A stretch of 64,000 bases of DNA, taken from NCBI GenBank assembly GCA_965243625.1, contig CBDEVI010000002.1:1839751-1903750 (forward strand). The letters run 5' to 3'. This DNA comes from Chloroflexota bacterium. Lineage in GTDB: Bacteria; Chloroflexota; UBA11872. A program made the position numbers and the translations under genes. The notes under the pieces were generated by a model. It ran no database searches. It was given only the letters and a program-made list of their open reading frames with translations, and had not been told where the DNA came from. Of this stretch, positions 34,005 through 50,915 are shown piece after piece. Position 1 is the first letter of the stretch. Each line of letters starts with the position of its first letter.

Positions 34005-34079
34005 GGGCGATTAGCTCAGCTGGGAGAGCGCTACGTTTACACCGTAGAAGTCGCAGGTTCGAGTCCTGCATCGCCCACC
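34005..34079 (+). tRNA. tRNA-Val (anticodon TAC)
   Basis: GGGCGAT-TA-GCTC-AGCTGGGA-GAGC-G-CTACG-TTTACAC-CGTAG-AAGTC-GCAGG-TTCGAGT-CCTGC-ATCGCCC-A-CC folds as a cloverleaf with 7/4/5/5-bp stems and a TTCGA T-loop. CC is encoded; the final A is not. Confidence 0.9.
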
Positions 34080-35304: not shown

Positions 35305-35380
35305 GGCGAGATAGCTCAGTCGGTAGAGCAGTGGACTGAAAATCCATGTGTCGCCAGTTCGATTCTGGCTCTCGCCACCA
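35305..35380 (+). tRNA. tRNA-Phe (anticodon GAA)
   Basis: GGCGAGA-TA-GCTC-AGTCGGTA-GAGC-A-GTGGA-CTGAAAA-TCCAT-GTGTC-GCCAG-TTCGATT-CTGGC-TCTCGCC-A-CCA is a canonical cloverleaf with CCA encoded. Confidence 0.9.
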
Positions 35381-35509: not shown

Positions 35510-35640
35510 CGCTCCGAGGTTCAATGAAGGGTGGATTCCCGCCTTCGCGGGAATGACGAAGGATTACGCAACGGTCTCCCTTCGCGGGAATGACGGAGGG
35601 GGCCGCCGAGGATTCTCTTCGTCGGAACGACGCATCAGGG
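35510..35640. repeat. MITE/REP-like composite repeat with two 'CTTCGCGGGAATGACG' hairpin halves
   Basis: 'ccgaggttcaatgaagGGTGGATTCCCGCCTTCGCGGGAATGACGaaggattacgcaacggtctcCCTTCGCGGGAATGACGGAGGgg…' is near-collinear with the copies at 8.9, 50.8 and 56.8 kb. Confidence 0.6.
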
Positions 35641-35671: not shown

Positions 35672-36352
35672 CTAGCAGCCGCTGTAGATAGTCATGCTGG
35701 GTAGGCAGCCGAAGTTGATCTTGGTGGTCCGAATCGTGACTTCCTCCACCGGCGCCGACGTCTCGCCGTCCGGTCCCGGACCCAGCGCCACGCCGCCGAT
35801 CTTGTCCAGCGTCGCCAACGACGGCGCGTGGTTCTCCTTGACGCGTCCGAAGATGGTGTAGTTGGGCGGCAACTCGGCGTCCGAGAGGTCGTTGAGAATG
35901 ATGTAGAAGCGTGATCCGTTCGAGTTTGGCGCGCCGGTATTGGCCATGACCAGATCACCGCGACGGTAGGGCTGCTGCGGGGCCTCGATCTCGAACGTAT
36001 AGCCCGCGTCGCCCGTTCCCGTGCCGGTGGCGTCGCCGGTCTCGATGAGCACGCCCGGCACCACGCGATGCACGGTGATGCCGTCGTAGTAGCCCTCCTG
36101 GGCCAGGAACAGGAAGCTATTGACCGCCCGCGGCGCCTCTTGCGGCACCAGGTTGAAGGTCATCCGTCCAAGGCTCGTGGTGAGAACGACGCTGTAGGGT
36201 CGAAGCTCCTCAACCGTCATCTCCGGCTCGGCGGCGAACGTCGGCGGGCCCTCGGGCTCCGCCTCTCCGCACGCGGCGACCGCAACTGCCGCGATCGCTA
36301 CGACCAACGCAATCACGATTGCTCGCCACATTGACGTTTGCTCCGCATCCAT
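35672..36352 (-). CDS. Cyclophilin-type peptidyl-prolyl cis-trans isomerase, lipoprotein, with C-terminal Cys-X11-Cys tail (…KINFGCLPSMTIYSGC)
   Basis: The cyclophilin core 'FHRVVPGVLIETGD', 'GYTFEIEAPQQPYRRGDLVMANTGAPNSNGSRFYIIL' and signal 'MWRAIVIALVVAIAAVAVAACGE' (lipobox). The track ORF extends to 36583; the start is chosen at the Met before the signal peptide. Confidence 0.8.
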   Translation of the reverse strand: MDAEQTSMWRAIVIALVVAIAAVAVAACGEAEPEGPPTFAAEPEMTVEELRPYSVVLTTSLGRMTFNLVPQEAPRAVNSFLFLAQEGYYDGITVHRVVPGVLIETGDATGTGTGDAGYTFEIEAPQQPYRRGDLVMANTGAPNSNGSRFYIILNDLSDAELPPNYTIFGRVKENHAPSLATLDKIGGVALGPGPDGETSAPVEEVTIRTTKINFGCLPSMTIYSGC

Positions 36353-36430
36353 CCGCCGGTTCTCCCGACATTCTGCCGTGTCGGCCGCCCTCTCGCCATG
36401 CAAGGCCCGCTGAGCTGACCAACGACCCGC

Positions 36431-37249
36431 ATGCGCTACGGTTTGCGGACGCGCCCGGAACGCCGGCAGGCGAGAGGGGAGTTCGTGAGCGTCGACATCG
36501 ACCAATGCGTCGCCGACGTCCTGGACATTGGCCACTGCGTCTTGCCCAATCACTTTCCCAAGTCGGCGATCGACGCGTTCCACGAAGGATTCCTACCGCT
36601 GCTGGGGGAGGTGGCGGCCCGCATTCCCGAAGGCAATCGCCGCGCCAACCGCTGGGCCATCGGCCTGCCCTTCGCCCCGCCGTTCTATCAGTCCGCGTTC
36701 TTTGGGGACGACACGGTGAACGAGATCGTGGGACGCATCCTGGGCGAAGGCATGTTCATCGCCTACTACGGCACCGATACGCCGGTCGCGGGATCCGAAG
36801 ACCAGCAGGTGCACTCGGACATCCGCCCGCTGTTCCCGGAGCAACCGGACCTGCGCTATCCGCCGCCGACGCTCTCCGTGCGGTTCACGAGCGTGGACAT
36901 GGCGCTCGAAAACGGGCCCTACAGCACGTCGGAGCGCACCCAGCACCTCACGCGCGACGAGGCACAGGCCAAACTCGCCGCGGGGGAGATCGAGCTCGCG
37001 CCGCTGCTGCTCCGCGCCGGCGACGTGCTCATCAGCGACGCCCGCACGCTGCACCGCGGCACGGCGAATCGCACGGACGAGCCGCGTCCCTTCGCCGTGA
37101 TCGTCTACAACCGCGACTGGTACCACCTGGAAGGCGAACTGCGGCTGGAGGCCAACGAAAACACGCCGATGCTGCTGGAGTCGTTCTACCAGTCGCTGCC
37201 GCCGGCCGAGCAAAACCTCCTCCGGCGAGTACCAAGGACGGATGGCTAG
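36431..37249 (+). CDS. Phytanoyl-CoA dioxygenase (PhyH)-family Fe(II)/2-oxoglutarate oxygenase
   Basis: 'QVHSDIRPLFPEQ' (HxD...) and 'LHRGTANRT' (distal His/Arg) in a double-stranded beta-helix family context. 272 aa; an alternative start is the GTG at ~36485. Confidence 0.65.
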   Translation: MRYGLRTRPERRQARGEFVSVDIDQCVADVLDIGHCVLPNHFPKSAIDAFHEGFLPLLGEVAARIPEGNRRANRWAIGLPFAPPFYQSAFFGDDTVNEIVGRILGEGMFIAYYGTDTPVAGSEDQQVHSDIRPLFPEQPDLRYPPPTLSVRFTSVDMALENGPYSTSERTQHLTRDEAQAKLAAGEIELAPLLLRAGDVLISDARTLHRGTANRTDEPRPFAVIVYNRDWYHLEGELRLEANENTPMLLESFYQSLPPAEQNLLRRVPRTDG

Positions 37250-37811
37250 GACACGGCGCCCGATCGTCCGAGCGGCTGCCGAGACGCGCCTGGTTGTCGT
37301 CCCCTACGATCCGGAGTGGCCGGCCATGTACGAGCGCGAACGCGCGGAGATTTCCGCGTGCATTGGTCAACACATCCGGCGCATCGAGCATGCGGGCAGC
37401 ACGTCGATTCCGGGCATGGCCGGAAAGCCGACCATCGACATCATGGTGGGCGTCCGCGACTGGGACGCGGCCAGGGTCACCTTCGGGCCGTTGGCCGAGA
37501 TTGGATGGGAGTTTCGCGGCGAGCGCGGCATGCCGCGGCGGCACTTCTTTCGCCGGCTCAATGCGCAGGGCCGCCGCACGCACCAGCTGCACATGCTGGA
37601 AGTGACCCACCCCGACTGGGTCGCGATGCTGCTCTTCCGCGACTATGTGCGCAGCCATCCGGACGTGGCGGCGGAGTATCAGCGGCTGAAGCTTGACCTG
37701 GCGCGGAGGTATCCGAACAGCAGGGGCGCGTACACGGCCGGGAAGGAGGCGTTCGTAATGAGGGTGCTGGAGCAAGCACGGCGAACGCCTGACGAGACGA
37801 CGGAAGGGTGA
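37242..37811 (+). CDS. GrpB-family protein (UPF0157; nucleotidyltransferase-fold, glutamate-rich protein GrpB)
   Basis: 'VVPYDPEWPAMYERERAEI...IEHAGSTSIPGMAGKPTIDIMVGV...RRHFF...HLHMLEV..PDW...LLFRDYVRSHPDVAAEYQRLKLDLA' matches the GrpB family end to end. Confidence 0.75.
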   Translation: MARTRRPIVRAAAETRLVVVPYDPEWPAMYERERAEISACIGQHIRRIEHAGSTSIPGMAGKPTIDIMVGVRDWDAARVTFGPLAEIGWEFRGERGMPRRHFFRRLNAQGRRTHQLHMLEVTHPDWVAMLLFRDYVRSHPDVAAEYQRLKLDLARRYPNSRGAYTAGKEAFVMRVLEQARRTPDETTEG

Positions 37812-37883
37812 TCTCGCCGTCCACGCGACCGTTTCGTCGCTAGACTTGACACCGTGCGGTCGACTAGATGAAGGGTCGGCATC

Positions 37884-38732
37884 ATGACGCTTTCCGACCA
37901 GCAACTGGCGTTCTTCGAGACCTTCGGCTACCTGACCTTTCCCGGAGCCTTCGCCGACGAAGCCGAGAAGATCACCGAGGCGTTCGAACAAGTGTGGGCG
38001 GATCATGGCGGCGGCCACAACCGGCAGGCGCACGATCATGAGCGCCGGTCGGCCCTGGTCCCGTTCATCGACCAGAGCGAGTATCTGAGCGCGCTGCTGG
38101 ACGACCCGCGCATCGACGGCGTTGTCAGCGCGTTGCTTGGCGACGATTACAACTACACCGGGAGCGACGGCAACTTCTACGTGGGCGACACGCGTTGGCA
38201 CTCCGACGGGTTCGCCCGCATGAAATACCGCTCCATCAAGATCGCGCTGTACCTGGACCCCGTCACGCGCGACTCCGGGTGCTTGCGGGTGATTCCCGGC
38301 AGCCACATTCGCGGTGACGGCTATGCCGAGGGGCTGCAGCAGATCATGCCGAGCAGTCGGTCGACGTCGCTCGAGGAGCACCTGGGCGTCGAAGGCCGCG
38401 ACGTGCCTGCGGTGGCGCTGGAATCGCAGCCGGGCGACATGGTGCTGTTCATTCACGACCTGAAGCACGCGTCGTTCGGCGGCGGAACCCGCCGGCGCAT
38501 GTTCACGATCAATATGTCCCAACGCTTCGCAGACGAAGACATCGAGGCGCTGCGGGAGGACGTTGCGACGATGGTCAGGTTCTGGGCCGAGCGGGCGTAC
38601 GGCGACGTGATGATCCAAACCGCCGGTCCGGGCCGCATGCGGCATCTGGAGCAACGGCTGGCCAACGACGACCACTTGCCCGAGCTTGTGCGCCAGGCCC
38701 GCCGGGAGATGCACGAGCCGTCCCGCAGCTAG
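37884..38732 (+). CDS. Phytanoyl-CoA dioxygenase (PhyH)-family Fe(II)/2-oxoglutarate oxygenase (second copy)
   Basis: 'MTLSDQQLAFFETFGYLTFPGAF', 'WHSDG' (HxD), 'GCLRVIPGSH' and 'HDLKHASFGG' are typical of PhyH. Confidence 0.75.
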   Translation: MTLSDQQLAFFETFGYLTFPGAFADEAEKITEAFEQVWADHGGGHNRQAHDHERRSALVPFIDQSEYLSALLDDPRIDGVVSALLGDDYNYTGSDGNFYVGDTRWHSDGFARMKYRSIKIALYLDPVTRDSGCLRVIPGSHIRGDGYAEGLQQIMPSSRSTSLEEHLGVEGRDVPAVALESQPGDMVLFIHDLKHASFGGGTRRRMFTINMSQRFADEDIEALREDVATMVRFWAERAYGDVMIQTAGPGRMRHLEQRLANDDHLPELVRQARREMHEPSRS

Positions 38733-38828
38733 CCCGCGTGCCGCTCCCACGATCGCAGAAGGCGGTTGCCACTGGAGGCCGCTAGGCTGTGCGCACCGCC
38801 ACAGCAACAAGCCGGCATGGGTGAAGCA

Positions 38829-40124
38829 ATGACCAAGACGATTCCAGGCGACCACGAGTGTTTCAGCGAGGACTGGCGGCGCACCGATCCCGACCTGGTG
38901 CTCTATCTGCCTGAGGAGCCCTCGTACTGGATCGAGGCGGTGGACCACGTCCTGGTGGACGTCACGCCGGGCGGCGACCTGCTGGCGATCTTCGCGCTGG
39001 CCAGCCAGCCGCACGGGGCCGACTATCGGGTGGCGTACTCACGCAGCGCCGACGGCGGCCGGACGTGGTCGCCGGTGGGCGTCATCGACGGTCCGGGGGC
39101 CAAGCCCGGACAGGTGAGCGCCTTTGGATTCCCGGTCATCAGCCGGCGCGGGCGCATCTACTGCTTCTACAACCACGGCCGAGCGATCGGCGACAGCTAT
39201 CAGACGAGCTTTCTGCGCTGCAAGTACTCGGACGACGACGGCCGGACCTGGATTAACGGGGAGGTCGTGATTCCGTACCGCTCCAGCGCCAACGACCACC
39301 CGGACCGCTCCATCGGCGCCAACTGCGTGGTGTGGCAGAAGCCCATCCGCGACGCGCAGGGCCGCCCCATCATTGGCTTCACGCGCTGGACGAACTCCTA
39401 CGTCAAGACGGCACGCCGCGAGGACGACTTCACCATGTCTCGCCGCGATAGCCAGGCGGAGTTCATGCGGTTCGAGAACATCGACGACTCACCACATCCG
39501 CGCGACGTTGAGATCACCTGGCTGCAAGACGACGACACGGCCATTCGGGTGCCGGTGCCGTACGAGCCCGAGGCTTCACGCAACTATTCCTATTGCGAGG
39601 AGCCCAGCGCGGTGCTGCTGCCGGATGGCCGCCTATTCACCGTGGCGCGTACGGCGACGGGGCAGATCTGGTACACAGTTTCGACCGACGACGGCGTCAC
39701 CTGGCGGCCAACGGAACCGCTGCTGAACCGCGACGATGGCCGGCCCATGCTCAACCCAGTCTCGCCGTGTCCCATCTTTGCGCTGGAGGACGGCCGGTTC
39801 CTGCTCATGCTGCAAAATCATGACGGGCATGGACACGGCGGTCGCGGGCCCCGCGACTTTCATGCGCGGCGTCCACAGTTCATCGCCGTGGGCGAGTTCC
39901 GGCCCAACGCCCACCAGCCAATCTGGTTCAGCCAGCCCCAACTGCTCTTCGACACGCAGAACATCGGGGTGTTTCCCTTCTACATGAAGTGGCTGTCGAT
40001 GTACGCCAGCGTCACGGAGCATCGCGGCGAGCGGATTCTTTGGTACGCCGACCGCAAGATCTTCGGCCTGGGACGCTACATCACGGACGAGCTGCTGGCC
40101 CCGTTGACGGTTCCCTCGGGATAG
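38829..40124 (+). CDS. BNR/Asp-box repeat glycoside hydrolase, sialidase (exo-alpha-sialidase)-like beta-propeller; no signal peptide seen
   Basis: Three Asp-boxes: 'SRSADGGRTW', 'SDDDGRTW', 'STDDGVTW'. The start is chosen at the Met of 'MTKTIPGD'; the track ORF starts at 38766. Confidence 0.65.
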   Translation: MTKTIPGDHECFSEDWRRTDPDLVLYLPEEPSYWIEAVDHVLVDVTPGGDLLAIFALASQPHGADYRVAYSRSADGGRTWSPVGVIDGPGAKPGQVSAFGFPVISRRGRIYCFYNHGRAIGDSYQTSFLRCKYSDDDGRTWINGEVVIPYRSSANDHPDRSIGANCVVWQKPIRDAQGRPIIGFTRWTNSYVKTARREDDFTMSRRDSQAEFMRFENIDDSPHPRDVEITWLQDDDTAIRVPVPYEPEASRNYSYCEEPSAVLLPDGRLFTVARTATGQIWYTVSTDDGVTWRPTEPLLNRDDGRPMLNPVSPCPIFALEDGRFLLMLQNHDGHGHGGRGPRDFHARRPQFIAVGEFRPNAHQPIWFSQPQLLFDTQNIGVFPFYMKWLSMYASVTEHRGERILWYADRKIFGLGRYITDELLAPLTVPSG

Positions 40125-40207
40125 CCCGGAATCTGGCGGGGCGCTGCTACGATTGGCGCCCCAATTCCCGCAGGACGCGCGGGGCTCCCCGAAATCGAGA
40201 CGGCTCC

Positions 40208-41062
40208 ATGGCGATAGAGGTCAGGCCGATTTCGCGCGCCCTCGGCGCGGAGGTCATTGGCGCCGACTTGACGCAGCCGGACGACGACGAGCAGTTCGAG
40301 GTCATCCACCAGGCGCTGCTGGATCACAACGTGGTCGTCATCCGCGACCAGCAGATCTCGCCGGCGGACCACGCGGCGTTCAGCGGCCGGTTCGGCAAGC
40401 TCGAGCTGCACGTGTTGAACCAGTTCCTGCTGCCCGAGCAGCCGGAGGTCCTGGTGCTGTCGAACAAGCGCATCAACGGAGTGCCCGTCGGACTGCAAGA
40501 CGCGGGCCGCGAGTGGCATAGCGACCTCTCCTACATGCGACTCCCCTCGCTGGGCTCATTGCTGTACGCGTTGGAAATCCCGCCGACCGGCGGCGACACG
40601 CTTTACGCCAATCTCTATTCGGCCTACGAGACGCTGTCGCCCGAGATGAAGGAACGCGTCGAAGGGCTTCGGCTGCGGCACTCCTACGCCGACTTCATTA
40701 ATCGCCGGTTCCAGGAGTCCGCGATGGAGCGGCCCACGCTGACCGCGGAGCAGGCGGCCAAGGTGCCCACGGCCGTGCATCCGTTGGTGCGCACGCATCC
40801 GGAAACCGGCCGCAAGGCGCTGTACGTGAGCCCGTCGCTCGTGGCCGGGATCGACGACATGGACGACGCCGAGGGACAGGCGCTGCTGCAAGAGCTCAAC
40901 GACCACGCCACGCAGCCCGAGTTCGTCTACCGGCACGTGTGGCGGCTCCACGACATCGTGTTCTGGGACAACCGCTGCACGCTGCACCAGGCCACGGCAT
41001 TCGACCCGAAATACACGCGCCACATGCACCGCACCACAATTCAGGGCGACCTGCCGGTCTGA
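40208..41062 (+). CDS. TauD/TfdA-family Fe(II)/2-oxoglutarate dioxygenase
   Basis: 'WHSDLSY' (HxD), 'GGDTLYANLYSAYETLS', 'HVWRLHDIVFWDNRCTLHQA' (distal His) and 'TRHMHRTTIQG' (Arg). 284 aa from the Met of 'MAIEV'. Confidence 0.8.
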   Translation: MAIEVRPISRALGAEVIGADLTQPDDDEQFEVIHQALLDHNVVVIRDQQISPADHAAFSGRFGKLELHVLNQFLLPEQPEVLVLSNKRINGVPVGLQDAGREWHSDLSYMRLPSLGSLLYALEIPPTGGDTLYANLYSAYETLSPEMKERVEGLRLRHSYADFINRRFQESAMERPTLTAEQAAKVPTAVHPLVRTHPETGRKALYVSPSLVAGIDDMDDAEGQALLQELNDHATQPEFVYRHVWRLHDIVFWDNRCTLHQATAFDPKYTRHMHRTTIQGDLPV

Positions 41063-41087
41063 CCGACGGCTGCCGGGTGCACCTCGC

Positions 41088-41915
41088 GTGAGCGCCGGGT
41101 CCAGCAAGTCCGTCGATCCCGACGGTTCCTACACGGCGGCGAATCGCGCCGCCTGGGACGCGATTGCGGATAGGCGGCAGAAGATTTGGCCGCCGGCGGA
41201 GTTCTTCGCCGAGGGCGGGTCGGTGCTCGACAAGCGCGATCGCGAGGCCGCCGGCGACGTGCGGGGACTGCGGCTGTGCCACTTGCAGTGCGGGAGCGGG
41301 GAAGAGGCGCTCTCGTGGGCGAACTTGGGCGCCGAGGTGACTGGCGTCGACATCAGCCCGAAGCAGATCGAGCTGGCAACCGCCAAGGCCAAGGCAGCTA
41401 GGATCTCCGCCGACTTTGTCGTGGCAGATGTCGACGCGCTCTCCAAAGCCCCGCTGCCTCCCGGGACTTTCGACATCGTTTACACGGGCGGCGGCGCCCT
41501 CGTATGGATCCCCGATCTCGACCGCTGGGCAGCGCCGGTGCAGCAGCTTCTTAGACCTGGCGGACGGTTAATCTGTCGGGAGGAGCATCCCGTTATCGGG
41601 TGTGTCGAGGTCCGCGACGGCTCGATCGCACTCACGGAGGACTACTTCGAGCGTCAGCCCCAGCCGGCCACCGGTTGGCTTCACTTTCCCGGCGGCGAAA
41701 GCGCCCCCGAGACCTATTGGGGGTTCACGTGGACGCTGGGCGAGATCATCACGAGCCTGGCGCAGGCCGGTCTCCGCATTGAACGCTTGGCGGAGTTTCC
41801 GAGCACGGCCACATGGCGTTTCGGCGACGATTTGCCGCGTCTTCAGAAACTGCCGGGCTCGTTTCTTCTCGTTGCCAGCAAGCCTTCCGACGTCGGTCGA
41901 CAAGCACCCGCGTAG
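41088..41915 (+). CDS. Class I SAM-dependent methyltransferase
   Basis: 'LRLCHLQCGSGEEALSWANLGAEVTGVDIS' (motif I GxGxG region), 'FDIVYTGGGALVW' (motif II) and 'LLRPGGRLI' (motif III). Confidence 0.7.
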   Translation: MSAGSSKSVDPDGSYTAANRAAWDAIADRRQKIWPPAEFFAEGGSVLDKRDREAAGDVRGLRLCHLQCGSGEEALSWANLGAEVTGVDISPKQIELATAKAKAARISADFVVADVDALSKAPLPPGTFDIVYTGGGALVWIPDLDRWAAPVQQLLRPGGRLICREEHPVIGCVEVRDGSIALTEDYFERQPQPATGWLHFPGGESAPETYWGFTWTLGEIITSLAQAGLRIERLAEFPSTATWRFGDDLPRLQKLPGSFLLVASKPSDVGRQAPA

Positions 41916-42012
41916 GGCGATTGGCTCACGAGCCGCCGACGTGGGAGACAGGCGGGATCCGTGGCTCAAGCGGCGCGAGAACGTGAGCGCTTAGAGCTGC
42001 ACCCTGTCGAAT

Positions 42013-43911
42013 CTAGTCCGGCCGATCCGCAGCCTCGTCCGTTGTCTGGGCGCTACGCAAGGCAGTGAATCGACCGCCGGCTTGGAGAAGTTCGGCGGGA
42101 GTCCCCAGTTCGAGCACCCGGCCTCGATCCATCACGACGATCCGGTCCGCGTCCATCACCGTTTCGATCCGGTGGGTAACGACGACCAGGGTGCGGCCGC
42201 GTCGCGAGGACGCCAGCGCGAGACGCAGGTCTCGCTCGGTCGCCACGTCCAGGGAGGCGGTAGCTTCGTCCAGAATCAGCAGGCGCGGGTCGCGCAGCAG
42301 CGCGCGGGCGATGGCGATGCGCTGTCGCTCGCCGGCGGAAATACTCTGGCCAAGCTCGCCAACAGTGGTCTCGAGCCCCTGAGGCAGTCTGGTGAGGAAA
42401 TCTTCGAGCTGGGCGTCCCGCAGCGCCCGCGCCAACTCGTCGGCATCGGCCTCCCCGGTTGGATAGCGGATGTTGTCGGCGATGGTCGCGTCCCATAGCC
42501 GCGGCTCCTGCGGGACGAATCCGATCTGCCGACGCAGCCACGAGAGATCGATCTCGCGTGTGTCGACCCCATCGACACGCACCGATCCCGCGTGCGGCAC
42601 GTAGAGCCCGACCAACAGGTCCAGCAGCGTCGACTTGCCGCTCCCCGTTTCTCCCACGATGCCGAGGAATTCGCCCGGCAGCCCTGAGAACGAGACGTCG
42701 AAGACTCCCGCGTCTTCCCTCGAATAGCGAAAGGTGGCTTCGTGGAATTCGACGCGCGCACCCATATCACCCGCCTGAAGTCTCGGCGTCCGGCCGCCGG
42801 CCCGTTCCGGAGCCAGGCCGAACACGGCGTCCATCAGTTCATATTCGGCTTGAACCCGCGCTCGCTCTGCCTGCAGGGTCAGAAGACGCTGCAGGGCCGC
42901 ATAGGCTCGGGGGACCAGCGTCACCGTGGCGATGAGCCCACCGACTGAGAGGAGACCACCGGCGATGAGCACGGCACCGAGTCCGAAGACCGCCGCAGTC
43001 ACCAGCACCTGAGCAGCCGGGGCCACGTGTGCGATCACCAAGTCGTGGAGGACGACGGTCTTGGATCTCACCTGCCACACGCTGTCGATCCAAGCCAGCC
43101 ATCGACGCTGCTCGCGCGCCGTGGCGTCGAAAACGCGCACAACCCGAATGCCCGCCAACACTTCCTGCAGGAATACCTGCCCTCGCTGGAGACGACGCAA
43201 CAACTCCTGATTGAGGCGGGTCGACAGCGGTCCCAGGCGGGCGGCGCCAAGCGTCGTCGCGGGAATTGCGATCACAGCCAGCAGCCCCAGTTGCCAGTCG
43301 ACCAAGAGCATGGCTATTCCGGCGGCCGCCAGCACAAAGGACTGCGAGATTGCAGGAAGCAGCGATTCCTTGACGTACACGTCGCCGATCCGCCCACATG
43401 ATCTGGTGAGTCGAAAGACCAGTTGCTCGGTCGGGATCTCCTCGAGCTCCTCGAACCGGGCAGTGGCGACGGTGTTGAAGGCGCGTTCGCGAAGATGCAT
43501 TGACACTCCCTCGCCAATCGCGGCTCGCATGTAGGTCTCGACGGACGCCAAAAGGAGCTGCACGAAGGCCGCTCCGGCCATCCCGCCGGCGAGCGCCGCC
43601 GCCAATCGGAGGTCGCCAACGGGCAGGGCGTGATCGATCAGGGCGGCGACAAGCAGGGCCGGAACAATGCCGACGGCCGCCCCGCCGAGCATCAGCCCGG
43701 ACGTGAGCGCAATGGACCGCCAGCGCCGACGGAGCTCCTGCCGCACGATGGCGGCGGACGCGGAGGCCTTGGGAGGTTCTGGCTTGGCGGCGATTGCGGG
43801 TGCGGGAATCCACGGCGTCGGGACTCCAATAGTCTGACGGCGATCGCCGCCGCCGTCAGTGCCGATTCCCGCCGAGGGTTCGAAAAATCGGGGATATAAT
43901 GAAGTGGGCAA
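42013..43911 (-). CDS. ABC exporter, fused transmembrane-domain (6 TM) plus ATPase half-transporter (MsbA/MdlB-like)
   Basis: C-terminal NBD: 'GIVGETGSGKSTL', 'ISAGERQRIAIARALL', 'ILILDEATASLD', 'VVVTHR'. N-terminal TMD with 'WQVRSKTVVLHDL…'. The start is uncertain; the Met is taken from the track. Confidence 0.8.
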   Translation of the reverse strand: MPTSLYPRFFEPSAGIGTDGGGDRRQTIGVPTPWIPAPAIAAKPEPPKASASAAIVRQELRRRWRSIALTSGLMLGGAAVGIVPALLVAALIDHALPVGDLRLAAALAGGMAGAAFVQLLLASVETYMRAAIGEGVSMHLRERAFNTVATARFEELEEIPTEQLVFRLTRSCGRIGDVYVKESLLPAISQSFVLAAAGIAMLLVDWQLGLLAVIAIPATTLGAARLGPLSTRLNQELLRRLQRGQVFLQEVLAGIRVVRVFDATAREQRRWLAWIDSVWQVRSKTVVLHDLVIAHVAPAAQVLVTAAVFGLGAVLIAGGLLSVGGLIATVTLVPRAYAALQRLLTLQAERARVQAEYELMDAVFGLAPERAGGRTPRLQAGDMGARVEFHEATFRYSREDAGVFDVSFSGLPGEFLGIVGETGSGKSTLLDLLVGLYVPHAGSVRVDGVDTREIDLSWLRRQIGFVPQEPRLWDATIADNIRYPTGEADADELARALRDAQLEDFLTRLPQGLETTVGELGQSISAGERQRIAIARALLRDPRLLILDEATASLDVATERDLRLALASSRRGRTLVVVTHRIETVMDADRIVVMDRGRVLELGTPAELLQAGGRFTALRSAQTTDEAADRPD

Positions 43912-43934
43912 AAAGAACGGTCGTCTCGACGCTG

Positions 43935-44927
43935 TTATCCCAGATCAAACAGTTGTTTCCACGATCTGGCGTTCAGAATGCGTTGGACAACATCGTTCCA
44001 GCACCCTGGCCACCCGTCGATCCACGCGAACTCCGAGGGCTCTGCTCCAAGTAGCCGAAGCTTGATGAGGTCGAACTCCGGCGTGGCCCCATAGCCGTCA
44101 AACAGTGCCTCCCACCAGTGGTCGCATGCCGGCAACAGAGCGGCGAGCTCGACGCACAGCTTGGCGAGGTCCTCACCAGCGTCGCCTGCCGATGCCACCT
44201 CCAAGTCGAGGGGCCCGGTGACCTGCCAATTGTCACCGTCCTCGACGAGAAAGAACGAGTTGGCGTGGCAATCCCCATGGACGAAGCGGGGCGGCTCGAA
44301 GCACGAGCCTAGACGGTCGGGCATTGTCGCGATGGCGCGATCCAGCCGCGCTCGCACATCCTCTGAGAGTTTGGCGGCCTCCGCCTCAAGCGTGTCCCGG
44401 GCATGATTCTGTCGCGACTCGACTGTCCAGCAGCGGTGCTGCCACTTGCCAGTCTGCCTGGGCGAGGTTGGCCCCTGCACGCTGGAAACGTAGCCAGGAA
44501 ACGCGAACTCAATCGTGTGCATCCGGCGCAGGTAATCGCCTACGGCGCCGAGCGGTGGTCCGGCTGCATGGCCCTGTCGCAGCACTGTTCCCAGCGCCTT
44601 CCCGGCCAGCTCGCGCGTCAAAAGGTAGGGTCGACCCAGGGGGTTGCTGGTGCCAGTCTCCTCTGCGACGACCTCCGGCGTTAGGAGTCCGTGAGCCTCG
44701 AGACATCGCCAGGCGCCCGCCTCGTGGGCGACGGGAAAGGCGTGCGAGTCGCCATGGGCCGCATACCAGGACTTCGTGTAGGTCTTTAGGAAGAATGATC
44801 CGGCTTCGCCGACCAGTCGCCAGACGTGGTTGCGCTCGTGCACCAACTCGATGCCAATCGGCCCGGACACGCCGACGCCGCCAAGGACGTGACTCGCCTG
44901 GCGCGCCGAGAGCGAAGTCGGGTTCAC
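43935..44927 (-). CDS. Phosphotransferase-enzyme-family protein (aminoglycoside-phosphotransferase/CotS/homoserine-kinase-II-like kinase fold)
   Basis: Catalytic loop 'FVHGDCHANSFFL' (HGDxxxxN), a downstream 'DLEVASAGDAGED' (DxE/D metal site) and an N-terminal lobe 'VWRLVGEAGSFFLKTY'. Confidence 0.7.
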   Translation of the reverse strand: MNPTSLSARQASHVLGGVGVSGPIGIELVHERNHVWRLVGEAGSFFLKTYTKSWYAAHGDSHAFPVAHEAGAWRCLEAHGLLTPEVVAEETGTSNPLGRPYLLTRELAGKALGTVLRQGHAAGPPLGAVGDYLRRMHTIEFAFPGYVSSVQGPTSPRQTGKWQHRCWTVESRQNHARDTLEAEAAKLSEDVRARLDRAIATMPDRLGSCFEPPRFVHGDCHANSFFLVEDGDNWQVTGPLDLEVASAGDAGEDLAKLCVELAALLPACDHWWEALFDGYGATPEFDLIKLRLLGAEPSEFAWIDGWPGCWNDVVQRILNARSWKQLFDLG

Positions 44928-45067
44928 GTGCTCCCCTCAAGAGGCCCGCACTGGAGATCTGCGACCGCGGACTCCCGACGAGGATAGATTCCTCTCCCCG
45001 GGGCCATACGACCACATACTCGCCACTCGCGGGCCGCATAGCTCAATTTCGCTTGCGCGATCGTGAC

Positions 45068-45976
45068 ATGGACATCGCCCGCGGCGCCGCCCACAATCGC
45101 GCACCTCCCGGTCAGAACGAGGGCGCCGTGAAGCTCGGCTACTTTCACAACGGGCACTTTCCGCCGATCGAGTTCGAGGAGTTCGTGCGTTGGGGCGCGG
45201 CCAACGGCTATCAGGCCGTCGACGTGCCGCTGTTCCAGCCCGGCGCCCGCGCCATCTGCGAGCGTCACGGCCTGGAACCGACTTCGACCACGGGCATGAT
45301 CTGCCAGCCCATTGCCACCGATGCGGAGGCTCGGGCGGAGCAGGTGGACGAGGCCCGCCGGGCGTTGGACTACGCCGCCGCCGAGCACATCCCGCTGGCG
45401 TGGCTGGGACACCAGATGGCACCAGACCTTGGATTCGACGCCAACGTGCGCCTCTTCGCCGAGGGCGCGGCGCCGGTGCTGGACCACGCGCAGCGGGTCG
45501 GCATGCGCCTGGTGATGGAGAACTGGGCGGACGGCGGGCGCAACCTGGCCTATGCCCCGGCGCACTGGGAGGCCATTTTCGACGCCGTCCCGCACGAGGC
45601 GTTGGGGCTGTGCTTCGATCCCTCGCACCTGGTCTGGCTGGGCATCGACTATCTCCGCGCGGCGCGCGAGTTCGGCCCGCGCATCTACCAGGCGCACGCC
45701 AAGGACACCGAGTTCCTGCCCGAGGCGCGCTACCGGTTCGGCGTCATCGGCGCCGACCGCGGACGGATCGGCCAGGGAACGTATCGCTTCCGGATTCCGG
45801 GATTCGGCGTGATCGACTGGCCGGCCTTCATCACCGCACTGCTCGACGTCGGCTACACCGGCCCGCTGGTGGTGGAGCACGAGGACCCGTTCTGGAGCGC
45901 CAGGACCGATCCCGGGCACGACGCGCTCAAGGGACTAGTGCTGGCCCAACGATTTCTGGCGCCGCTGCTGGTCTAG
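45068..45976 (+). CDS. Sugar-phosphate isomerase/epimerase (xylose-isomerase-like TIM barrel, AP-endonuclease-2 superfamily)
   Basis: 'LVMENWADGG', 'LGLCFDPSHLVWLGID' and 'YQAHAKDTEF...GPLVVEHED' fit the family. The start is at the Met of 'MDIARG' (45068); the track ORF starts at 44324 and its N-terminal third is Arg-rich junk. Confidence 0.75.
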   Translation: MDIARGAAHNRAPPGQNEGAVKLGYFHNGHFPPIEFEEFVRWGAANGYQAVDVPLFQPGARAICERHGLEPTSTTGMICQPIATDAEARAEQVDEARRALDYAAAEHIPLAWLGHQMAPDLGFDANVRLFAEGAAPVLDHAQRVGMRLVMENWADGGRNLAYAPAHWEAIFDAVPHEALGLCFDPSHLVWLGIDYLRAAREFGPRIYQAHAKDTEFLPEARYRFGVIGADRGRIGQGTYRFRIPGFGVIDWPAFITALLDVGYTGPLVVEHEDPFWSARTDPGHDALKGLVLAQRFLAPLLV

Positions 45977-46002
45977 AACTGCAGCGGAAGCCGACGAGTC
46001 CG

Positions 46003-47028
46003 CTATACGCTTGGCCAGCCGTCGGGAATCTCGTTGGCGTCGAGCGCGGACTTGATGGCTTCGGCGGCCTCGGGCGTCACCCAGCCTGACCATACGCTCA
46101 CGTTGCTCTTGAGCCACCAGAGCGCTGTTTCGTTGATGCTGGCATCCCTGTTTTCGAGCCGCCACTTGCCGACGTCTTTGTAGAGTTCGAGATTTAGATT
46201 CCAGGCCCGCAGCATCTCGACGATTTCCGGCGCCCGATCAGGGATATCTCGATGCACGGCAATGGAAATCGTGGCGTCTCGGTAGGCGCAAGCCCTCGTC
46301 GTATCCCAGCACTCATCGGTGTACTCGGGCTCCTTCAATCGGACCAGATCAAGCTCCGCCGCCGGATCGTTCGTGCCCCATTGATATCCAAGCCACGGTT
46401 CCCGTCGCTCGTATGCGCCGTAGAGGTCGGCATTCGCCGCTGCGCCGTCTCCTGGATTGATGATGTGGACATGGTCCGAGAGTCCATAGGCCTCGATCTG
46501 CTGGGCGTTGATCTCCTCGCACACCCACCCGATGACGCAAGACACCAGCCGCGCTTTACCGCGCGTTTCGACCGTGGCGAACAGCGCCTTGAACTTCTCG
46601 TCTTTCAGATCCTCGACACTGTCCAGCTCCGGATACTGCTCCTGAAGGTATGCGGGGATTACGAATGCGGACTGCCAGTCGCGGCCGAGGCTTTCGCCGA
46701 CCAATTCGACGTCGCCCGCTGCCAGCGCATCCACCCAGGCATCTTCCTGGTTCGGCAGCCAGATCTCCATGGTCACGTGGGTGTCGCCTCGGCGCAGTCC
46801 CTGCAACAACGGAAGGGTGGCGCCGAATACCAGATCGGTCGGGTAGCCGTAGCCCTTTTCAACGAGGTATTGGGCGACGCGATTCTGAAACTGCGCACTG
46901 GTCCAGTTCAGATCGCTGAAGACGATGGGGTCCTTCTCCGCAACGACTTCAGTCTCGGAGCAGGCGGTTCCAAATATGACGGCAATCAGCGCAATTGCCA
47001 TGACCGATCGTCTGGACATGGCCAACAT
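46003..47028 (-). CDS. Glycine-betaine/proline-betaine (ProX/OpuAC-type) ABC substrate-binding lipoprotein; orphan (no permease/ATPase adjacent)
   Basis: Signal 'MAIALIAVIFGTACSE' (lipobox), 'IVFSDLNWTSAQFQNRVAQYLVEKGYGY' and later Trp-rich cage residues ('WLGYQWG', 'ALWWLKSNVSVWSGWV') typical of betaine binders. Confidence 0.7.
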   Translation of the reverse strand: MLAMSRRSVMAIALIAVIFGTACSETEVVAEKDPIVFSDLNWTSAQFQNRVAQYLVEKGYGYPTDLVFGATLPLLQGLRRGDTHVTMEIWLPNQEDAWVDALAAGDVELVGESLGRDWQSAFVIPAYLQEQYPELDSVEDLKDEKFKALFATVETRGKARLVSCVIGWVCEEINAQQIEAYGLSDHVHIINPGDGAAANADLYGAYERREPWLGYQWGTNDPAAELDLVRLKEPEYTDECWDTTRACAYRDATISIAVHRDIPDRAPEIVEMLRAWNLNLELYKDVGKWRLENRDASINETALWWLKSNVSVWSGWVTPEAAEAIKSALDANEIPDGWPSV

Positions 47029-47212
47029 GCGTCAGGTCTCCCTTCTCATTTCCCTCAGGCTGCTTTCAGAGTGCCTGTTGGAGATACCGTCATCGTGCAA
47101 TCGGGAATCACCGGCCCCGATTCGAGGATGCTACTGCCTGCGTTCCGGTCCGGCCAATCGTCAGGGCCGGGCCTGCATGCCACTTCGCATTCGGTGATCT
47201 GACGCGGTCCCG

Positions 47213-47638
47213 CTACAGCACGCCCTTGGTGAGAATCAAGTTGCCGTAGAGCCGCCGCTCGCCGGTGGCGACGATCGCGAAGGCCCGCCGCGCCCGCTCG
47301 TAGAAGGCGAAGCGCTCCACCCGCTCGAAGCTCACGGGCGCCCCGTGGGCTGCCTCGACGAGGCGGCGGAAGTCGGCGAAGACGGGCCGCTCGGCGTCCG
47401 GGTCGCCGACCACCGCCATCACCGCCGCCGGCGCCTCGACATACTCGTCGAGCGGCAGCACCGACAGGATGGCCTGGGCCGTGCGCGTGGCGTCGACGCC
47501 GTCGAGGCGCACCAGCCGCCGGGCGCTGGCTTCGGCCGGAAAGTTGGCATCGACAATCACGATCTCGTCGCCATGCCCCATGGCCGCAAGCACACGCAGC
47601 AGATCCGGTCCAAGGAGGGGGTCGATGCCTTTCAGCAT
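47213..47638 (-). CDS. RbsD/FucU-family sugar mutarotase (D-ribose pyranase / L-fucose mutarotase)
   Basis: 'MLKGIDPLLGPDLLRVLAAMGHGDEIVIVDANFP' is the family N-terminal signature. ~141 aa from this Met; the track ORF extends to 47749. Confidence 0.7.
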   Translation of the reverse strand: MLKGIDPLLGPDLLRVLAAMGHGDEIVIVDANFPAEASARRLVRLDGVDATRTAQAILSVLPLDEYVEAPAAVMAVVGDPDAERPVFADFRRLVEAAHGAPVSFERVERFAFYERARRAFAIVATGERRLYGNLILTKGVL

Positions 47639-47739
47639 GAGGGCGTTCCTTAGCGTTGGCGCGGCGGCATGGTGGCACATGCGGACGGATATGCTCCGCA
47701 GCATGGGCGAAGACGAAGCGAACGGACCGGGGAGGCGCT

Positions 47740-48930
47740 GTGACGTCACGCGCTAACTCGGACCGCACTGGCGCGGAGGGCGCTGGCCCGGCGCTCAAGG
47801 AGTTCGTCGAGCACGTGCCGGTGACGCTCAACGATGCCGGCGACACCGCCGGCTGGGTGTCCAAGGAGTCGGTCGACCGCCTGTGGATCGAAGCGGACGG
47901 GGAGCTGGTCAGCCAACTCTGGGTCGTCGATGTCACGGTGCGAGCGTGGGGCGCCGAGCTGCGCAGCGCCGGCGTGGCCGGCGTGGGGACGCCCGAGCCG
48001 CATCGCATGAAAGGCTACGCCCGGCGGCTGATGGAGGCTTGCGAGCGGTATTCGGCCGACCGCGGCTACCCGATCAGCACGCTATTCGGGATTCCGGACT
48101 TCTATCACCGCTTCGGCTACGCCTCGGTCTGCCCGGAATACGAAATCCGGATCGAACTCGACGCCCTCGAGACGGATGGGCCAACCGCTTCGCTCGAGGA
48201 TCTCCAGCCCTCGGATTGGGATCCAATTGCTCGCATGTGCAACGCGGCGTACGGATCGCTCGACGGCTCGGTCGTCCGGCGCGAAGGCGCGTGGCGAGGT
48301 GCCAGGCAGGGTACGGATTGGTTCAAGAAACCCCAGGCGCTGGTGAGTCGCGATGCGCACGGGCAACCTGCGGGGTACGCGGTGGTCGACACCGAGCTGA
48401 CGGACGGTTGCCTGTCGGTGTCGGAAGCGGCGGCGCGCGATGACGCCGCTGGGAGAGCCCTTGCGAGCGGTTTGGCCGAGATGGTCAGATCGCGCGGCGC
48501 GACGGGCCTGCTGGCCAGTCTGCATCCGGGCACGGGGTTGGGACCGCTGCTGACTCGACTTGGTGGCGCGGTCGAGGTGACACGACCGGACGACGCCGGC
48601 TACATGGCGTGCATCGTCGATCTGGACGCCATGTTGCAGAGGTGCACGCCGGCGCTCGTCGACCGTGCAGCGGCCGGCGAGCTGCCATTGCCCGAAACGC
48701 TGCAAGTGAAGACCGATATCGGCCATGGCTGCATCGCGCTCGGCGGACAGTCGCCGCCCGCCGAGCTGTCAATCGGTCGGCGAGGGCTCGTGCAGCTTCT
48801 GTTCGGTTACCGGACGTTTGGAGAACTTCAGGAGATCGGCCAGGCCCGCGCGACCGGCGTCTCCGACGCCGTGCTAGCGAAACTCTTTCCACGCAATGAC
48901 GGCTACTGTTTCTGGCCCGACCGGTATTGA
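47740..48930 (+). CDS. Eis-like GNAT acetyltransferase (tandem GNAT folds plus C-terminal SCP2-like domain)
   Basis: 'VAGVGTPEPHRMKGYARRLMEACERYSADRGYPISTLFGIPDFYHRFGYA' (acetyl-CoA pocket, 'YGRFGY'-like) and a ~400-aa three-domain layout. The GTG at 47740 is preceded by GGAGG 5 nt upstream; the track ORF starts at 47656. Confidence 0.7.
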   Translation: MTSRANSDRTGAEGAGPALKEFVEHVPVTLNDAGDTAGWVSKESVDRLWIEADGELVSQLWVVDVTVRAWGAELRSAGVAGVGTPEPHRMKGYARRLMEACERYSADRGYPISTLFGIPDFYHRFGYASVCPEYEIRIELDALETDGPTASLEDLQPSDWDPIARMCNAAYGSLDGSVVRREGAWRGARQGTDWFKKPQALVSRDAHGQPAGYAVVDTELTDGCLSVSEAAARDDAAGRALASGLAEMVRSRGATGLLASLHPGTGLGPLLTRLGGAVEVTRPDDAGYMACIVDLDAMLQRCTPALVDRAAAGELPLPETLQVKTDIGHGCIALGGQSPPAELSIGRRGLVQLLFGYRTFGELQEIGQARATGVSDAVLAKLFPRNDGYCFWPDRY

Positions 48931-49006
48931 TGCGGGAGCCTCATTTGCGGTGGAACCCATCCAAGGCCAACCTCCGAAACTGAAACCGTCAGAGGGGTGT
49001 TGACCG

Positions 49007-49885
49007 TCAGCCGAACCGCTTGATGAAACCCGGAAACGTCCCCATCGTCGGCATCTCGAGGTCGAACGCTTCGTAGCCCGCGCGGCGGATCCGGTCCAGG
49101 ATTTCCGAATCACTCGGTCGGCACGGCGCCAGCATGAGGGCGGTCCCGCCGGGCTTCACCACACGATCGATCTCGCGCAGCTCCTCGTCCGGCTTCCAAC
49201 CGAACGATCCGTTGGTCAAAATCGCCGCGTCCACGGCGTCGTCGGTCAGCGGCACCCGCTCGACGAGCGCGTTGAGCGTGGTGACGTTGTGGAATCCGTG
49301 GGCGGACAGCTTCCGCTCGATGAACTCGCGCAGCACGGCGACAGGCTCCAATGCGAACACCCGCTCGGCGTAGGGCGCGCACCGCAGGGTGGCCTGGCCG
49401 GTGCCCGCGCCAATATCGAGGACCACGCGACCGCCTACGTCCACCCGGTCGTGAATCTCGCGAGGGTCCCAATGGCTCCACGTCAAGGCGTCCCACGTCG
49501 CCGGTGACTTGGCCATGCCGACGTTCCACGCGCAGCGTTGCAGGATCGCATCCTGCGTGGATCGCAACTCCTCAGGTGAAAGCGCCGGTGCATGGGCGCG
49601 AGCCGCTCGCAGTCCGGCACGGAACGTTGGCGAGGCCTTCGAGAAGTGGTCGATGACCTCGGGCAGCGGCATCAGCGCCGCGTACAGGCGATCCCCAAAC
49701 TCGCGCAGAAGCCCGGGTGTTCCGCGTTCGTCTTCTAGAAACGTATTGACGAAGTACGTGTCCAGGTGGCGCAAGTCCGAGAGCCGCAGATCGAACATTC
49801 GAATGGGATCGATCACCATTCGCGGCCAGCCACGGGCAGGTGCCGAGCTCACCGGCGTGGAGCGTTCGAATTCGCGGCGCAGCAT
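49007..49885 (-). CDS. Class I SAM-dependent methyltransferase
   Basis: 'VVLDIGAGTGQATL' (motif I), 'AVDAAILTNGSFGW' and 'VKPGGTALM'. Confidence 0.7.
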   Translation of the reverse strand: MLRREFERSTPVSSAPARGWPRMVIDPIRMFDLRLSDLRHLDTYFVNTFLEDERGTPGLLREFGDRLYAALMPLPEVIDHFSKASPTFRAGLRAARAHAPALSPEELRSTQDAILQRCAWNVGMAKSPATWDALTWSHWDPREIHDRVDVGGRVVLDIGAGTGQATLRCAPYAERVFALEPVAVLREFIERKLSAHGFHNVTTLNALVERVPLTDDAVDAAILTNGSFGWKPDEELREIDRVVKPGGTALMLAPCRPSDSEILDRIRRAGYEAFDLEMPTMGTFPGFIKRFG

Positions 49886-49898
49886 GGGGCGATGGGCG

Positions 49899-50603
49899 TC
49901 AGGACCCCAATACCAGCGCCGGCAGTTCGGTGAGGCGGGTTATTCGGGTGACGCCTGCTGGCTCGTTGCCTATGTCGTGACGGTCGAGCCACACGCCCGT
50001 GAGCCCCGCGTCGCGCGCCCCGATCGCGTCCACGGCCAAGCGATCGCCCACGTGCACGCACGCCGCGGGTGGCGCTCCTACGGCCCGGCAAGCTACCTCG
50101 AAGATGCCCGGATGGGGTTTCGCCACTCCTTCGTCCTCGGAAGCCACGACTGCCGCAAAGCGGTCCAAGACGCCAACCCCTTCGAGCTTCTGTCGCTGGT
50201 GCACCGACCCTCCGTTGGTGATGACACCGAGGCGGAAGCCGCGCAACGCCTCCACGGAGTCGAGGACGTCGGGGAACAGCTCCCAATTCTCTTCATAGGC
50301 ACGGCGGTAGACGGCGAAGGTCTCATCGGCTTCGGCGTCGGACATTTCGCTTGGTGTGACGTCGAACAAGTCCCGAATCCGCCACCGCCGTTGGCCGACA
50401 TAAGAGGTTTCGCCGCGCAGGTAGCGATCGAAGTGCAGCTCCGTCGAATCTTCCCAGCGCCGGAGAAGACTCTCGTCACTACCTGTGAGCCGGTCTCGGT
50501 ACCTGCTGAACATGCCAAGCGCTCCGGCGCGAGTGGCCGCGTCGTGGTCGAGCAGCGTGCCATCGAGGTCGAAGAAGACGGCTTGGATGGGTGAACCTGG
50601 CAT
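49899..50603 (-). CDS. HAD-superfamily hydrolase (subfamily IA)
   Basis: 'AVFFDLDGTLLD' (motif I DxDGT), 'GVITNG' (motif II), 'KPHPGIF' (motif III) and 'VHVGDRLAVDAIGARDAG' (motif IV). Confidence 0.8.
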   Translation of the reverse strand: MPGSPIQAVFFDLDGTLLDHDAATRAGALGMFSRYRDRLTGSDESLLRRWEDSTELHFDRYLRGETSYVGQRRWRIRDLFDVTPSEMSDAEADETFAVYRRAYEENWELFPDVLDSVEALRGFRLGVITNGGSVHQRQKLEGVGVLDRFAAVVASEDEGVAKPHPGIFEVACRAVGAPPAACVHVGDRLAVDAIGARDAGLTGVWLDRHDIGNEPAGVTRITRLTELPALVLGS

Positions 50604-50769: not shown

Positions 50770-50915
50770 GGCTTCGAGGTGAGGCGGCGGGTGGATTCCC
50801 GCCCCGTATCAAGTACGGGGCAGGCTCTTCGCGGGAATGACGGAGGGGTTACGCGAAGGCCTCCCTGCGATGGGACATGCTTCGCGGGAATGACGAGGGC
50901 TTTGCCGGAGTCTCC
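50770..50915. repeat. MITE/REP-like composite repeat with nested hairpin (GGGTGGATTCCCGCCCCGTATCAAGTACGGGGCAGG…CTTCGCGGGAATGACG ×2)
   Basis: Near-identical to the copy at 56.77-56.92 kb. Track ORF 50728..50934 ('VDSRPVSSTGQALRGNDGG…FAGMT') is its translation artefact. Confidence 0.6.

Follow-up and report, generated by a model that had tools for sequence, protein, structure and literature searches.

PhyH-family oxygenases are expanded in sponge symbionts (PMC3909097), and GH33 sialidases are enriched in such symbionts, with lateral transfer (PMC8163846). Among dioxygenases that use Fe(II) and 2-oxoglutarate (2OG), the His and Arg residues of the TauD sulfonate clamp have been named, and the sulfoquinovose dioxygenase SqoD has been described with an H-x-E triad and a neutral (Gln/backbone) sulfonate pocket (PMC12951627). 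Here we describe fourteen consecutive genes, relatives of these enzymes among them, at positions 36431-50603 of a 64,000-nucleotide stretch from a Chloroflexota bacterium (GTDB lineage Bacteria; Chloroflexota; UBA11872; assembly GCA_965243625.1, contig CBDEVI010000002.1, positions 1,839,751 to 1,903,750 of the forward strand). We refer to the whole stretch as the window and to the fourteen genes as the block. An initial annotation had treated the block as one functional set. Comparison with other genomes shows that it is not a demonstrable unit: its parts are kept together only in one narrow, genus-level Chloroflexota group. We consider the block to be, more likely than not, a vertically inherited, fluid neighborhood on an uncultured Chloroflexota chromosome, composed of six or more small gene units that are independent of one another.

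All fourteen family names of the initial annotation were confirmed by a Pfam scan, and codon-position G+C and open reading frame (ORF) tables give a single clear gene per position from 36.4 to 50.6 kb, in a window with a G+C content of 64 to 75%. The block opens on the plus strand with six co-directional genes: PhyH1, a PhyH-family Fe(II)/2OG oxygenase (36431-37249; Pfam PhyH, 1.3e-8); GrpB, a nucleotidyltransferase-fold protein (37242-37811; Pfam GrpB, 3.2e-49); PhyH2, a second PhyH-family oxygenase, from a very large and well-conserved 282-amino-acid (aa) family (37884-38732; Pfam PhyH, 1.6e-15); a sialidase-fold BNR_2 protein (38826-40124; Pfam BNR_2, 2e-15); a TauD/TfdA-family Fe(II)/2OG dioxygenase (40205-41062; Pfam TauD, 3.3e-74); and MT1, a class-I S-adenosylmethionine (SAM) methyltransferase, which closes the run (41088-41915; Pfam Methyltransf_11/25). 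Spacers in this run range from -8 to 93 nucleotides (nt). The minus strand then carries an APH-fold small-molecule kinase (43935-44927; Pfam APH, 6.2e-18) and, downstream of it, a fused ABC exporter with transmembrane and nucleotide-binding domains (42013-43911; Pfam ABC_membrane and ABC_tran). A xylose-isomerase-like TIM barrel (45071-45976, plus strand; Pfam AP_endonuc_2, 8.2e-33) is divergent from the kinase gene. An RbsD/FucU mutarotase (47213-47650, minus strand; Pfam RbsD_FucU, 1.3e-41) is followed after a 184-nt gap by a ProX/OpuAC-type substrate-binding lipoprotein with a lipobox (46003-47028, minus strand; Pfam OpuAC, 2.7e-41). Divergent from FucU is an Eis-type GNAT protein with the domain order GNAT-GNAT-SCP2 (47764-48930, plus strand; Pfam Acetyltransf_9, Acetyltransf_17, and SCP2_2), and the last minus-strand run consists of a HAD-IA phosphatase (49899-50603; Pfam Hydrolase/HAD_2) and then MT2, another class-I SAM methyltransferase (49007-49885; Pfam Methyltransf_25/11).

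The block is laid out in seven same-strand runs with six strand changes (three divergent and three convergent junctions), which amounts to six transcription units if FucU and ProX form one unit and seven if they form two. We propose as units the six-gene run from PhyH1 to MT1; APH followed by the ABC exporter; the TIM barrel; FucU, together with ProX where it is present; the Eis-like GNAT; and HAD followed by MT2. Promoter and terminator scans did not inform operon borders, as predicted sites were no more common than in shuffled sequence. An Rfam search of the window returned two tRNAs only, and a ligand clue from a riboswitch or other RNA was rejected on this result. PADLOC matched only generic methyltransferase and ABC domains, and the defense-island reading was rejected likewise.

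Using BNR_2, PhyH2, and APH as anchors, we followed the block genes into more distant genomes. Co-occurrence is lost at every depth tested beyond roughly genus level, except for APH and the TIM barrel. BNR_2 at 85% identity stands alone in L001 and L002, with a hypothetical gene on one side, an ornithine decarboxylase gene on the other, and shikimate-pathway genes near. About 50 of the 80 genome loci found with the BNR_2 profile hold a homolog at 30 to 62% identity. A tblastn search with all block proteins found no partner within 10 kb of these loci at E ≤ 1e-8 except one 39%-identical Eis-like gene (L012); at E ≤ 1e-4, a few distant PhyH genes turn up besides. The 117 nearest neighbors of 37 BNR_2 loci map to 116 Pfam families, with PhyH appearing 4 times and with TauD, GrpB, and the methyltransferases outside the 25 most frequent families. 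Several metagenome-assembled genomes (MAGs) carry two BNR_2 loci each.

PhyH2 is similarly scattered. Its homologs number 3415 matches, many of them 282 aa long at 60 to 75% identity, and it occurs as a singleton in unrelated contexts of two complete genomes (75% and 73% identity). In 80 metagenome loci with PhyH2 at 54 to 66% identity (40 of them at least 8 kb long), TauD lies alongside in one and three tandem PhyH2 paralogs occur in one; no other block genes were found beside PhyH2 in these 80 loci. On a marine metagenome contig (L095, 9071-13276), three PhyH2 paralogs, 59 to 62% identical to that of the window, lie within about 5 kb, which illustrates local amplification of the PhyH2 family.

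APH at 63% identity is found among HD-domain and phosphatase genes. The APH and TIM-barrel genes are again divergent in L088 (8976-10996; 66% and 81% identity, respectively), where topA, rpsB, tsf, pyrH, frr, and mfd surround them. Nothing else of the block recurs beyond the close clade, and the recurrence of this pair suggests a two-gene functional module. The initial annotation had called for a neighborhood comparison and had named scattering of the genes among relatives as evidence against its functional set. Co-occurrence does hold within the close clade; beyond genus level, the APH/TIM-barrel pair excepted, homologs of BNR_2, PhyH2, and APH stand alone in unrelated contexts of distant genomes, so scattering is largely what we find.

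The close clade consists of four loci (L003, L004, L084, and L086 in our L### labeling), and the block or its first part sits at the same cyclophilin-flanked position in all of them. Within this clade, the block is syntenic, but changes in gene content occur at the boundaries between units and, in places, within the six-gene run as well. L084 is conspecific (95.6% nt identity over 17 kb) and keeps the whole arrangement, including the flanking cyclophilin genes. GrpB is cleanly deleted there (window 37288-37808; L084 ~17118), placing PhyH2 directly after PhyH1. Identity to L084 is mosaic: the N-terminal half of APH is 73 to 89% identical in nucleotides and 82% in amino acids, and its neighbors are 95 to 100% identical. 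Low-identity patches (73 to 89% nt against a background of 95 to 100%) lie at 41.7-42.6, 44.1-45.0, and 48.3-48.6 kb, most markedly over the N-terminal half of the kinase; they look like inter-strain recombination or diversifying selection on the kinase.

L086 (~80% nt identity, with a range of 76 to 85%) keeps 11 of the 14 block genes and is without ProX, MT2, and HAD. Its gene order is cyclophilin, PhyH1, GrpB, PhyH2, an extra methyltransferase of 193 aa, BNR_2, TauD, MT1, ABC, APH, TIM barrel, FucU, and Eis-like, with about 390 bp standing in place of ProX. Both of its flanks are unlike the window, and the far side carries a sugar ABC importer, an SGL lactonase, and Zn-dehydrogenases. L003 and L004 (82 to 85% nt) keep the six-gene run, after which come some 7 kb with very large genes for secreted proteins; in L004, this insert separates MT1 from the ABC gene, which lies beyond it. 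The insert spans 13067-20214 in L004 and 13130-15297 in L003, and nothing in the window corresponds to it. Its products are a secreted protein of 275 aa and two ORFs, of 1196 and 843 aa, and its sequence looks like repeats of fibronectin-III-like and pre-peptidase-like modules; in L003, the 275-aa protein has a 255-aa counterpart and the large ORF runs past the contig end.

At the protein level, PhyH1 is 85 to 98% identical in the four relatives, and MT1 is 70 to 95% identical in relatives. BNR_2 is the most conserved block gene, at 93 to 94% identity in L003, L004, and L086 with neighbors at 70 to 90%; its best database relative is in the "Chloroflexota bacterium" MAG L004 (94% aa). The names given to related MAGs make an origin of the window in a sponge symbiont conceivable. 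An APH protein 100% identical to that of the window is present on one NCBI contig.

The TauD homolog is 40% identical to E. coli TauD over its full length and matches TauD in the PDB at 200 bits; the E. coli reference sequence was checked by its letters at nine named positions. The iron triad is kept (H104, D106, and H260; H99, D101, and H255 in E. coli), as are the 2OG residues R271 and T131 (E. coli R266 and T126) and the sulfonate clamp H68/R275 (His70/Arg270 in TauD). The taurine amine pocket is changed, with Tyr73, Asn95, and Ser158 replaced by Q78, G100, and F163, and the NCBIfam taurine dioxygenase model scores 244.6 bits, under its cut-off of 313. This protein probably frees sulfite (or sulfate) from a non-taurine sulfonate or a sulfate ester, judging from its family and active-site residues. 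An identity as SqoD was rejected, as the window protein has an H-x-D motif and a cationic His/Arg clamp. PhyH1 has kanamycin B dioxygenase KanJ as its nearest solved protein (1.6e-9), with a visible HxD...H motif. PhyH2 is nearest, weakly, to ectoine hydroxylase EctD (1e-4), and H106-x-D108, H195, and R204/R205 are invariant in its family. Family membership suggests that both PhyH proteins hydroxylate or oxidatively deaminate their substrates.

The AlphaFold model of the BNR_2 protein (predicted local distance difference test score [pLDDT], 83.5; predicted template modeling score, 0.87) is a six-bladed propeller. Its top Foldseek matches are GH33 sialidases (E ~1e-14, template modeling [TM] score ~0.6, 13 to 19% identity). 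Three Asp boxes (S-x-D-x-G-x-T-W) are present, and sequence searches matched the Asp-box segments alone. Many Arg, Tyr, Glu, and Asp residues are invariant in a sequence alignment of the family. The protein is probably cytoplasmic because it has no signal peptide, and its probable substrate is an intracellular, sugar-acid-like glycoside. The BNR_2 family has no conserved gene context. Its members have a uniform length of ~420 to 470 aa, with 58% mean column identity over 16 diverse members, and range across Chloroflexota, Acidobacteriota, Planctomycetota, Poribacteria, and Lentisphaerae MAGs and even Paenibacillus, often in two copies per genome.

The kinase model (pLDDT 92.3) matches the folds of APH(3'), APH(7''), homoserine kinase II, and methylthioribose (MTR) kinase at TM scores of 0.5 to 0.65, and its HGDxxxxN and DxE motifs are invariant. 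Its sequence matched no NCBIfam family at E ≤ 0.001 and no PDB sequence at E ≤ 0.01. The TIM barrel matches IolE (NCBIfam) and the 2-hydroxy-3-keto-glucal hydratase 8RO4 (4e-8), both weakly. A sugar-like compound is the probable substrate, which the pair would phosphorylate and isomerize or dehydrate. The Eis-like GNAT scores 19 to 31 bits against Eis models with cut-offs of 259 to 624, and PDB Eis matches at 3e-4. For the ABC exporter, every NCBIfam match (MsbA, type I secretion) is under its cut-off, and by sequence we class it as a generic half transporter like those of MsbA and type I secretion.

The initial annotation had grouped the kinase, acetyltransferase, and exporter as classic self-resistance activities. 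An aminoglycoside- or aminocyclitol-modifying resistance set built on these proteins and GrpB, or a cryptic biosynthetic gene cluster of which they are the remnant, would fit the APH fold and intact catalytic motifs of the kinase, the three-domain Eis architecture of the GNAT, the resemblance of PhyH1 to KanJ, and the presence of an ABC exporter. Nevertheless, we regard it as very improbable. The kinase and GNAT lack the sequence-level scores just described that such roles would call for, the exporter is generic, and the three genes lie in three different transcription units. APH homologs elsewhere lie beside the TIM barrel or HD/phosphatase genes and not beside resistance or biosynthesis genes. 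Further, no scaffold-forming enzyme (polyketide synthase, nonribosomal peptide synthetase, terpene synthase, terpene or sugar cyclase, or ribosomally synthesized and posttranslationally modified peptide precursor with its maturase) and no aminotransferase is present among the scanned genes of the 64 kb. The initial annotation had noted the absence of such genes from the block and had judged the set to look catabolic, detoxifying, or scavenging rather than biosynthetic; it was right that no biosynthetic cluster is present and that the families have a catabolic or scavenging look.

The remaining proteins also fall within known families. ProX matches PDB 7YLE at 9e-28. The window encodes no ProV or ProW partner, in agreement with the orphan status given to ProX before, and this quaternary-amine binding protein probably feeds a transporter encoded elsewhere. 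FucU scores 126 bits against the NCBIfam L-fucose mutarotase model (cut-off 141). For HAD, the NCBIfam equivalog matches are all under their cut-offs, and only generic HAD-IA subfamily models pass.

The genes kept in L086 raise the question of a single pathway. This 11-gene core (PhyH1, GrpB, PhyH2, BNR_2, TauD, MT1, ABC, APH, TIM barrel, FucU, and Eis-like) could serve to break down or detoxify one amino-, sulfo-, or deoxy-sugar-like compound by a single route. The sialidase-fold enzyme would free the sugar, the oxygenases would take off its amine or sulfonate substituents, the carbon skeleton would enter metabolism through the mutarotase, kinase, and TIM barrel, and the exporter would clear a by-product. 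We judge such a route unlikely. The adjacency of the 11 genes at ~80% nt identity between differing flanks argues for it, as do the position of the L086 block next to a sugar importer, lactonase, and dehydrogenases, the KanJ relationship of PhyH1 (an aminoglycoside deaminating dioxygenase), the sulfonate clamp of the TauD homolog, and the weak likeness of the TIM barrel to keto-glucal hydratase and IolE. However, no two units co-occur beyond the genus-level clade except APH and the TIM barrel, GrpB is dispensable in a conspecific strain, and in L003 and L004 the set is interrupted by the 7-kb insert. The seven same-strand runs come with neither a regulator nor a riboswitch, and all of the substrate hints derive from distant relatives at E-values of 1e-4 to 1e-9. 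A more specific proposal appears less likely still: the core as an undescribed intracellular route for a glycoside derived from a host or from dissolved organic matter, in which the oxygenases and the sialidase-fold protein would remove the substituents of a sulfonated, aminated, or methylated sugar acid and the kinase/TIM-barrel pair would deliver the skeleton to central metabolism.

Several observations weigh against a neighborhood of independent units. In L086, 11 of the 14 genes are still neighbors although both flanks differ, which could mean selection for linkage. The 8-nt overlap of the GrpB start with the PhyH1 stop and the spacers of 25 to 93 nt in the six-gene run fit real co-transcription of a subset. 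Distant PhyH genes adjoin BNR_2 homologs in unrelated MAGs (L009, L011, and L034). Finally, the block could be conserved beyond the background synteny of these genomes. As for PhyH and BNR_2 as a recurrent pair, we rejected it; 4 of 37 loci are too few given the copy number of PhyH.

The surroundings of the block bear on a different possibility, that it is a horizontally acquired island placed by tRNA genes and bounded by repeats resembling miniature inverted-repeat transposable elements (MITEs); the initial annotation had described an island bracketed by such repeats and following two tRNA genes. Two tRNA genes indeed precede the block, tRNA-Val (34005-34079) and tRNA-Phe (35305-35380), with a cyclophilin lipoprotein gene (35672-36355, minus strand) intervening between tRNA-Phe and PhyH1. 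Repeats also exist at both of the sites named, each as a tandem pair on the plus strand (35540-35615 and 50790-50915). They belong to a dispersed family that resembles repetitive extragenic palindromic (REP) elements: the 15-mer TTCGCGGGAATGACG has 11 copies in the window (at most 2 mismatches) versus 0.3 expected, and the family lies at 1660, 1771, 8936, 17010, 35544, 35581, 50828, 50881, 56841, 56879, and 62438. With seven sites across the window (1.7, 8.9, 17.0, 35.5, 50.8, 56.8, and 62.4 kb) sharing this 15-mer, neither the 35.5-kb nor the 50.8-kb repeat pair is an island border. The unit is ~37 nt long, tandem, and hairpin containing (approximately TTCGCGGGAATGACGGAGGGGTTACGCAAAGGTCTCCC), and is often preceded by GGTGGATTCCCGCC, which pairs as a hairpin with the unit start; tandem pairs are common. 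A second hairpin (CCCCGTATCAAGTACGGGG) is nested in the copies at 50.79 and 56.8 kb. We rejected a MITE identity for these tandem, hairpin-containing units and classify them as REP-like.

An acquired island would be consistent with the position just downstream of two tRNA genes, with the mosaic identity to L084, and with broken synteny upstream of tRNA-Phe in L004 and the absence of a NUDIX gene from L003. The third-position G+C (GC3) of ABC, APH, ProX, and HAD (0.75 to 0.76) is also under that of all 29 flanking genes (minimum, 0.789). The six-gene run, by contrast, has typical GC3, as do the TIM barrel and FucU (0.88 to 0.90). No integrase, transposase, or relaxase was found among the Pfam-scanned genes, no second copy of the tRNA-Phe 3' end occurs in the window, and plasmid searches matched single genes only, never more than one block gene per plasmid. 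Together with the dispersed repeats and the position of the block (or of its first part), which all four close relatives share, these results make an island highly doubtful, and we rejected the mobile-element reading for want of an att repeat and of any plasmid with more than one of the genes. The initial annotation's island by the tRNAs is thus not borne out. A small share of the probability remains with none of the explanations named in this report.

The NUDIX hydrolase gene (34315-35007, minus strand) lies between tRNA-Val and tRNA-Phe and has a predicted N-terminal membrane or signal segment; it is kept in L084, and in L003, where it is missing, the two tRNA regions adjoin. Downstream of the block are two cyclophilin-type lipoprotein genes (52955-53623 and 53823-54437, both minus strand), tandem duplicates at 95% identity; the upstream copy is 54 to 57% identical to both. 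The three cyclophilin genes bracket the whole variable region, that is, the block and two hypothetical genes, and do so in L084 as well. The hypothetical genes are overlapping ORFs of 307 and 377 aa at 51063-52912 with high third-position G+C; they are conserved in L084 only and have no Pfam or NCBIfam match, and the first resembles a polytopic membrane protein. At 2538-7543, a gene for an ImuB-like Y-family polymerase followed by a DnaE2-type polymerase III alpha subunit resembles the known damage-inducible mutagenesis cassette. The window elsewhere holds ordinary chromosomal genes: besides ImuB/DnaE2, these include an amidohydrolase, a luciferase-like monooxygenase, an ABC importer, tryptophanyl/tyrosyl-tRNA synthetase, PPK2, glycogen phosphorylase, PspC/LiaF, and an M24 peptidase.

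We return to a vertically inherited, fluid neighborhood of small units as the favored explanation. Gene content, strand layout, unit-by-unit insertions and deletions in relatives, and the loss of co-occurrence outside the clade carry it. Each unit may act on its own small polar substrate, which would amount to broad scavenging of dissolved or host-derived organics, and adjacency would reflect shared ancestry and multi-copy families rather than one pathway. The biochemical roles proposed above were assigned from family membership and a few active-site residues. Our verdict is that the block is ordinary, fluid accessory metabolism drawn from multi-copy families.

We draw a caution from this result. 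"Tailoring/resistance-type" families packed closely together in an uncultured Chloroflexota genome are not in themselves evidence of a pathway, resistance cassette, or island, and this run dissolves once genomes outside the narrow clade are compared. The parts worth experiment are the widespread, multi-copy sialidase-fold BNR_2 family and the APH-fold kinase/TIM-barrel pair with its housekeeping context. In marine and symbiotic Chloroflexota, where oxygenase and BNR families are large and unexplained, work on both would aid annotation.

Compared with described systems, the block shows nothing categorically new; its proteins are uncharacterized members of known families, and their arrangement is lineage specific. 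The TauD homolog shares its iron triad, 2OG residues, and sulfonate clamp with the TauD enzymes of E. coli and P. putida (1GQW and 3PVJ) but differs in the amine pocket residues and in having no adjoining tauABC transporter. PhyH1 and PhyH2 have the Pfam family and iron-binding motif of KanJ and EctD, whereas their matches are remote and partial and no kanamycin or ectoine pathway accompanies them. The BNR_2 protein has the predicted propeller and three Asp boxes of GH33 sialidases such as those of Micromonospora viridifaciens (1EUR/1WCQ) and C. perfringens NanH; unlike them, it is without a signal peptide, is only 13 to 19% identical, and has no nanA, nanK, or nanE nearby. The kinase fold and catalytic motifs are those of aminoglycoside phosphotransferases, homoserine kinase II, and MTR kinase, whereas the window kinase has no sequence-level match to them and has the xylose-isomerase-like TIM barrel as its conserved partner. 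The GNAT protein has the domain order of mycobacterial Eis, but its sequence similarity is very weak. Finally, although the studies of sponge-associated bacteria (Kamke 2014, PMC3909097; Robbins 2021, PMC8163846) describe family abundance and not the gene arrangement seen in the window, the families are the same ones, multi-copy in MAGs of Chloroflexota, Acidobacteriota, Poribacteria, and Planctomycetota.

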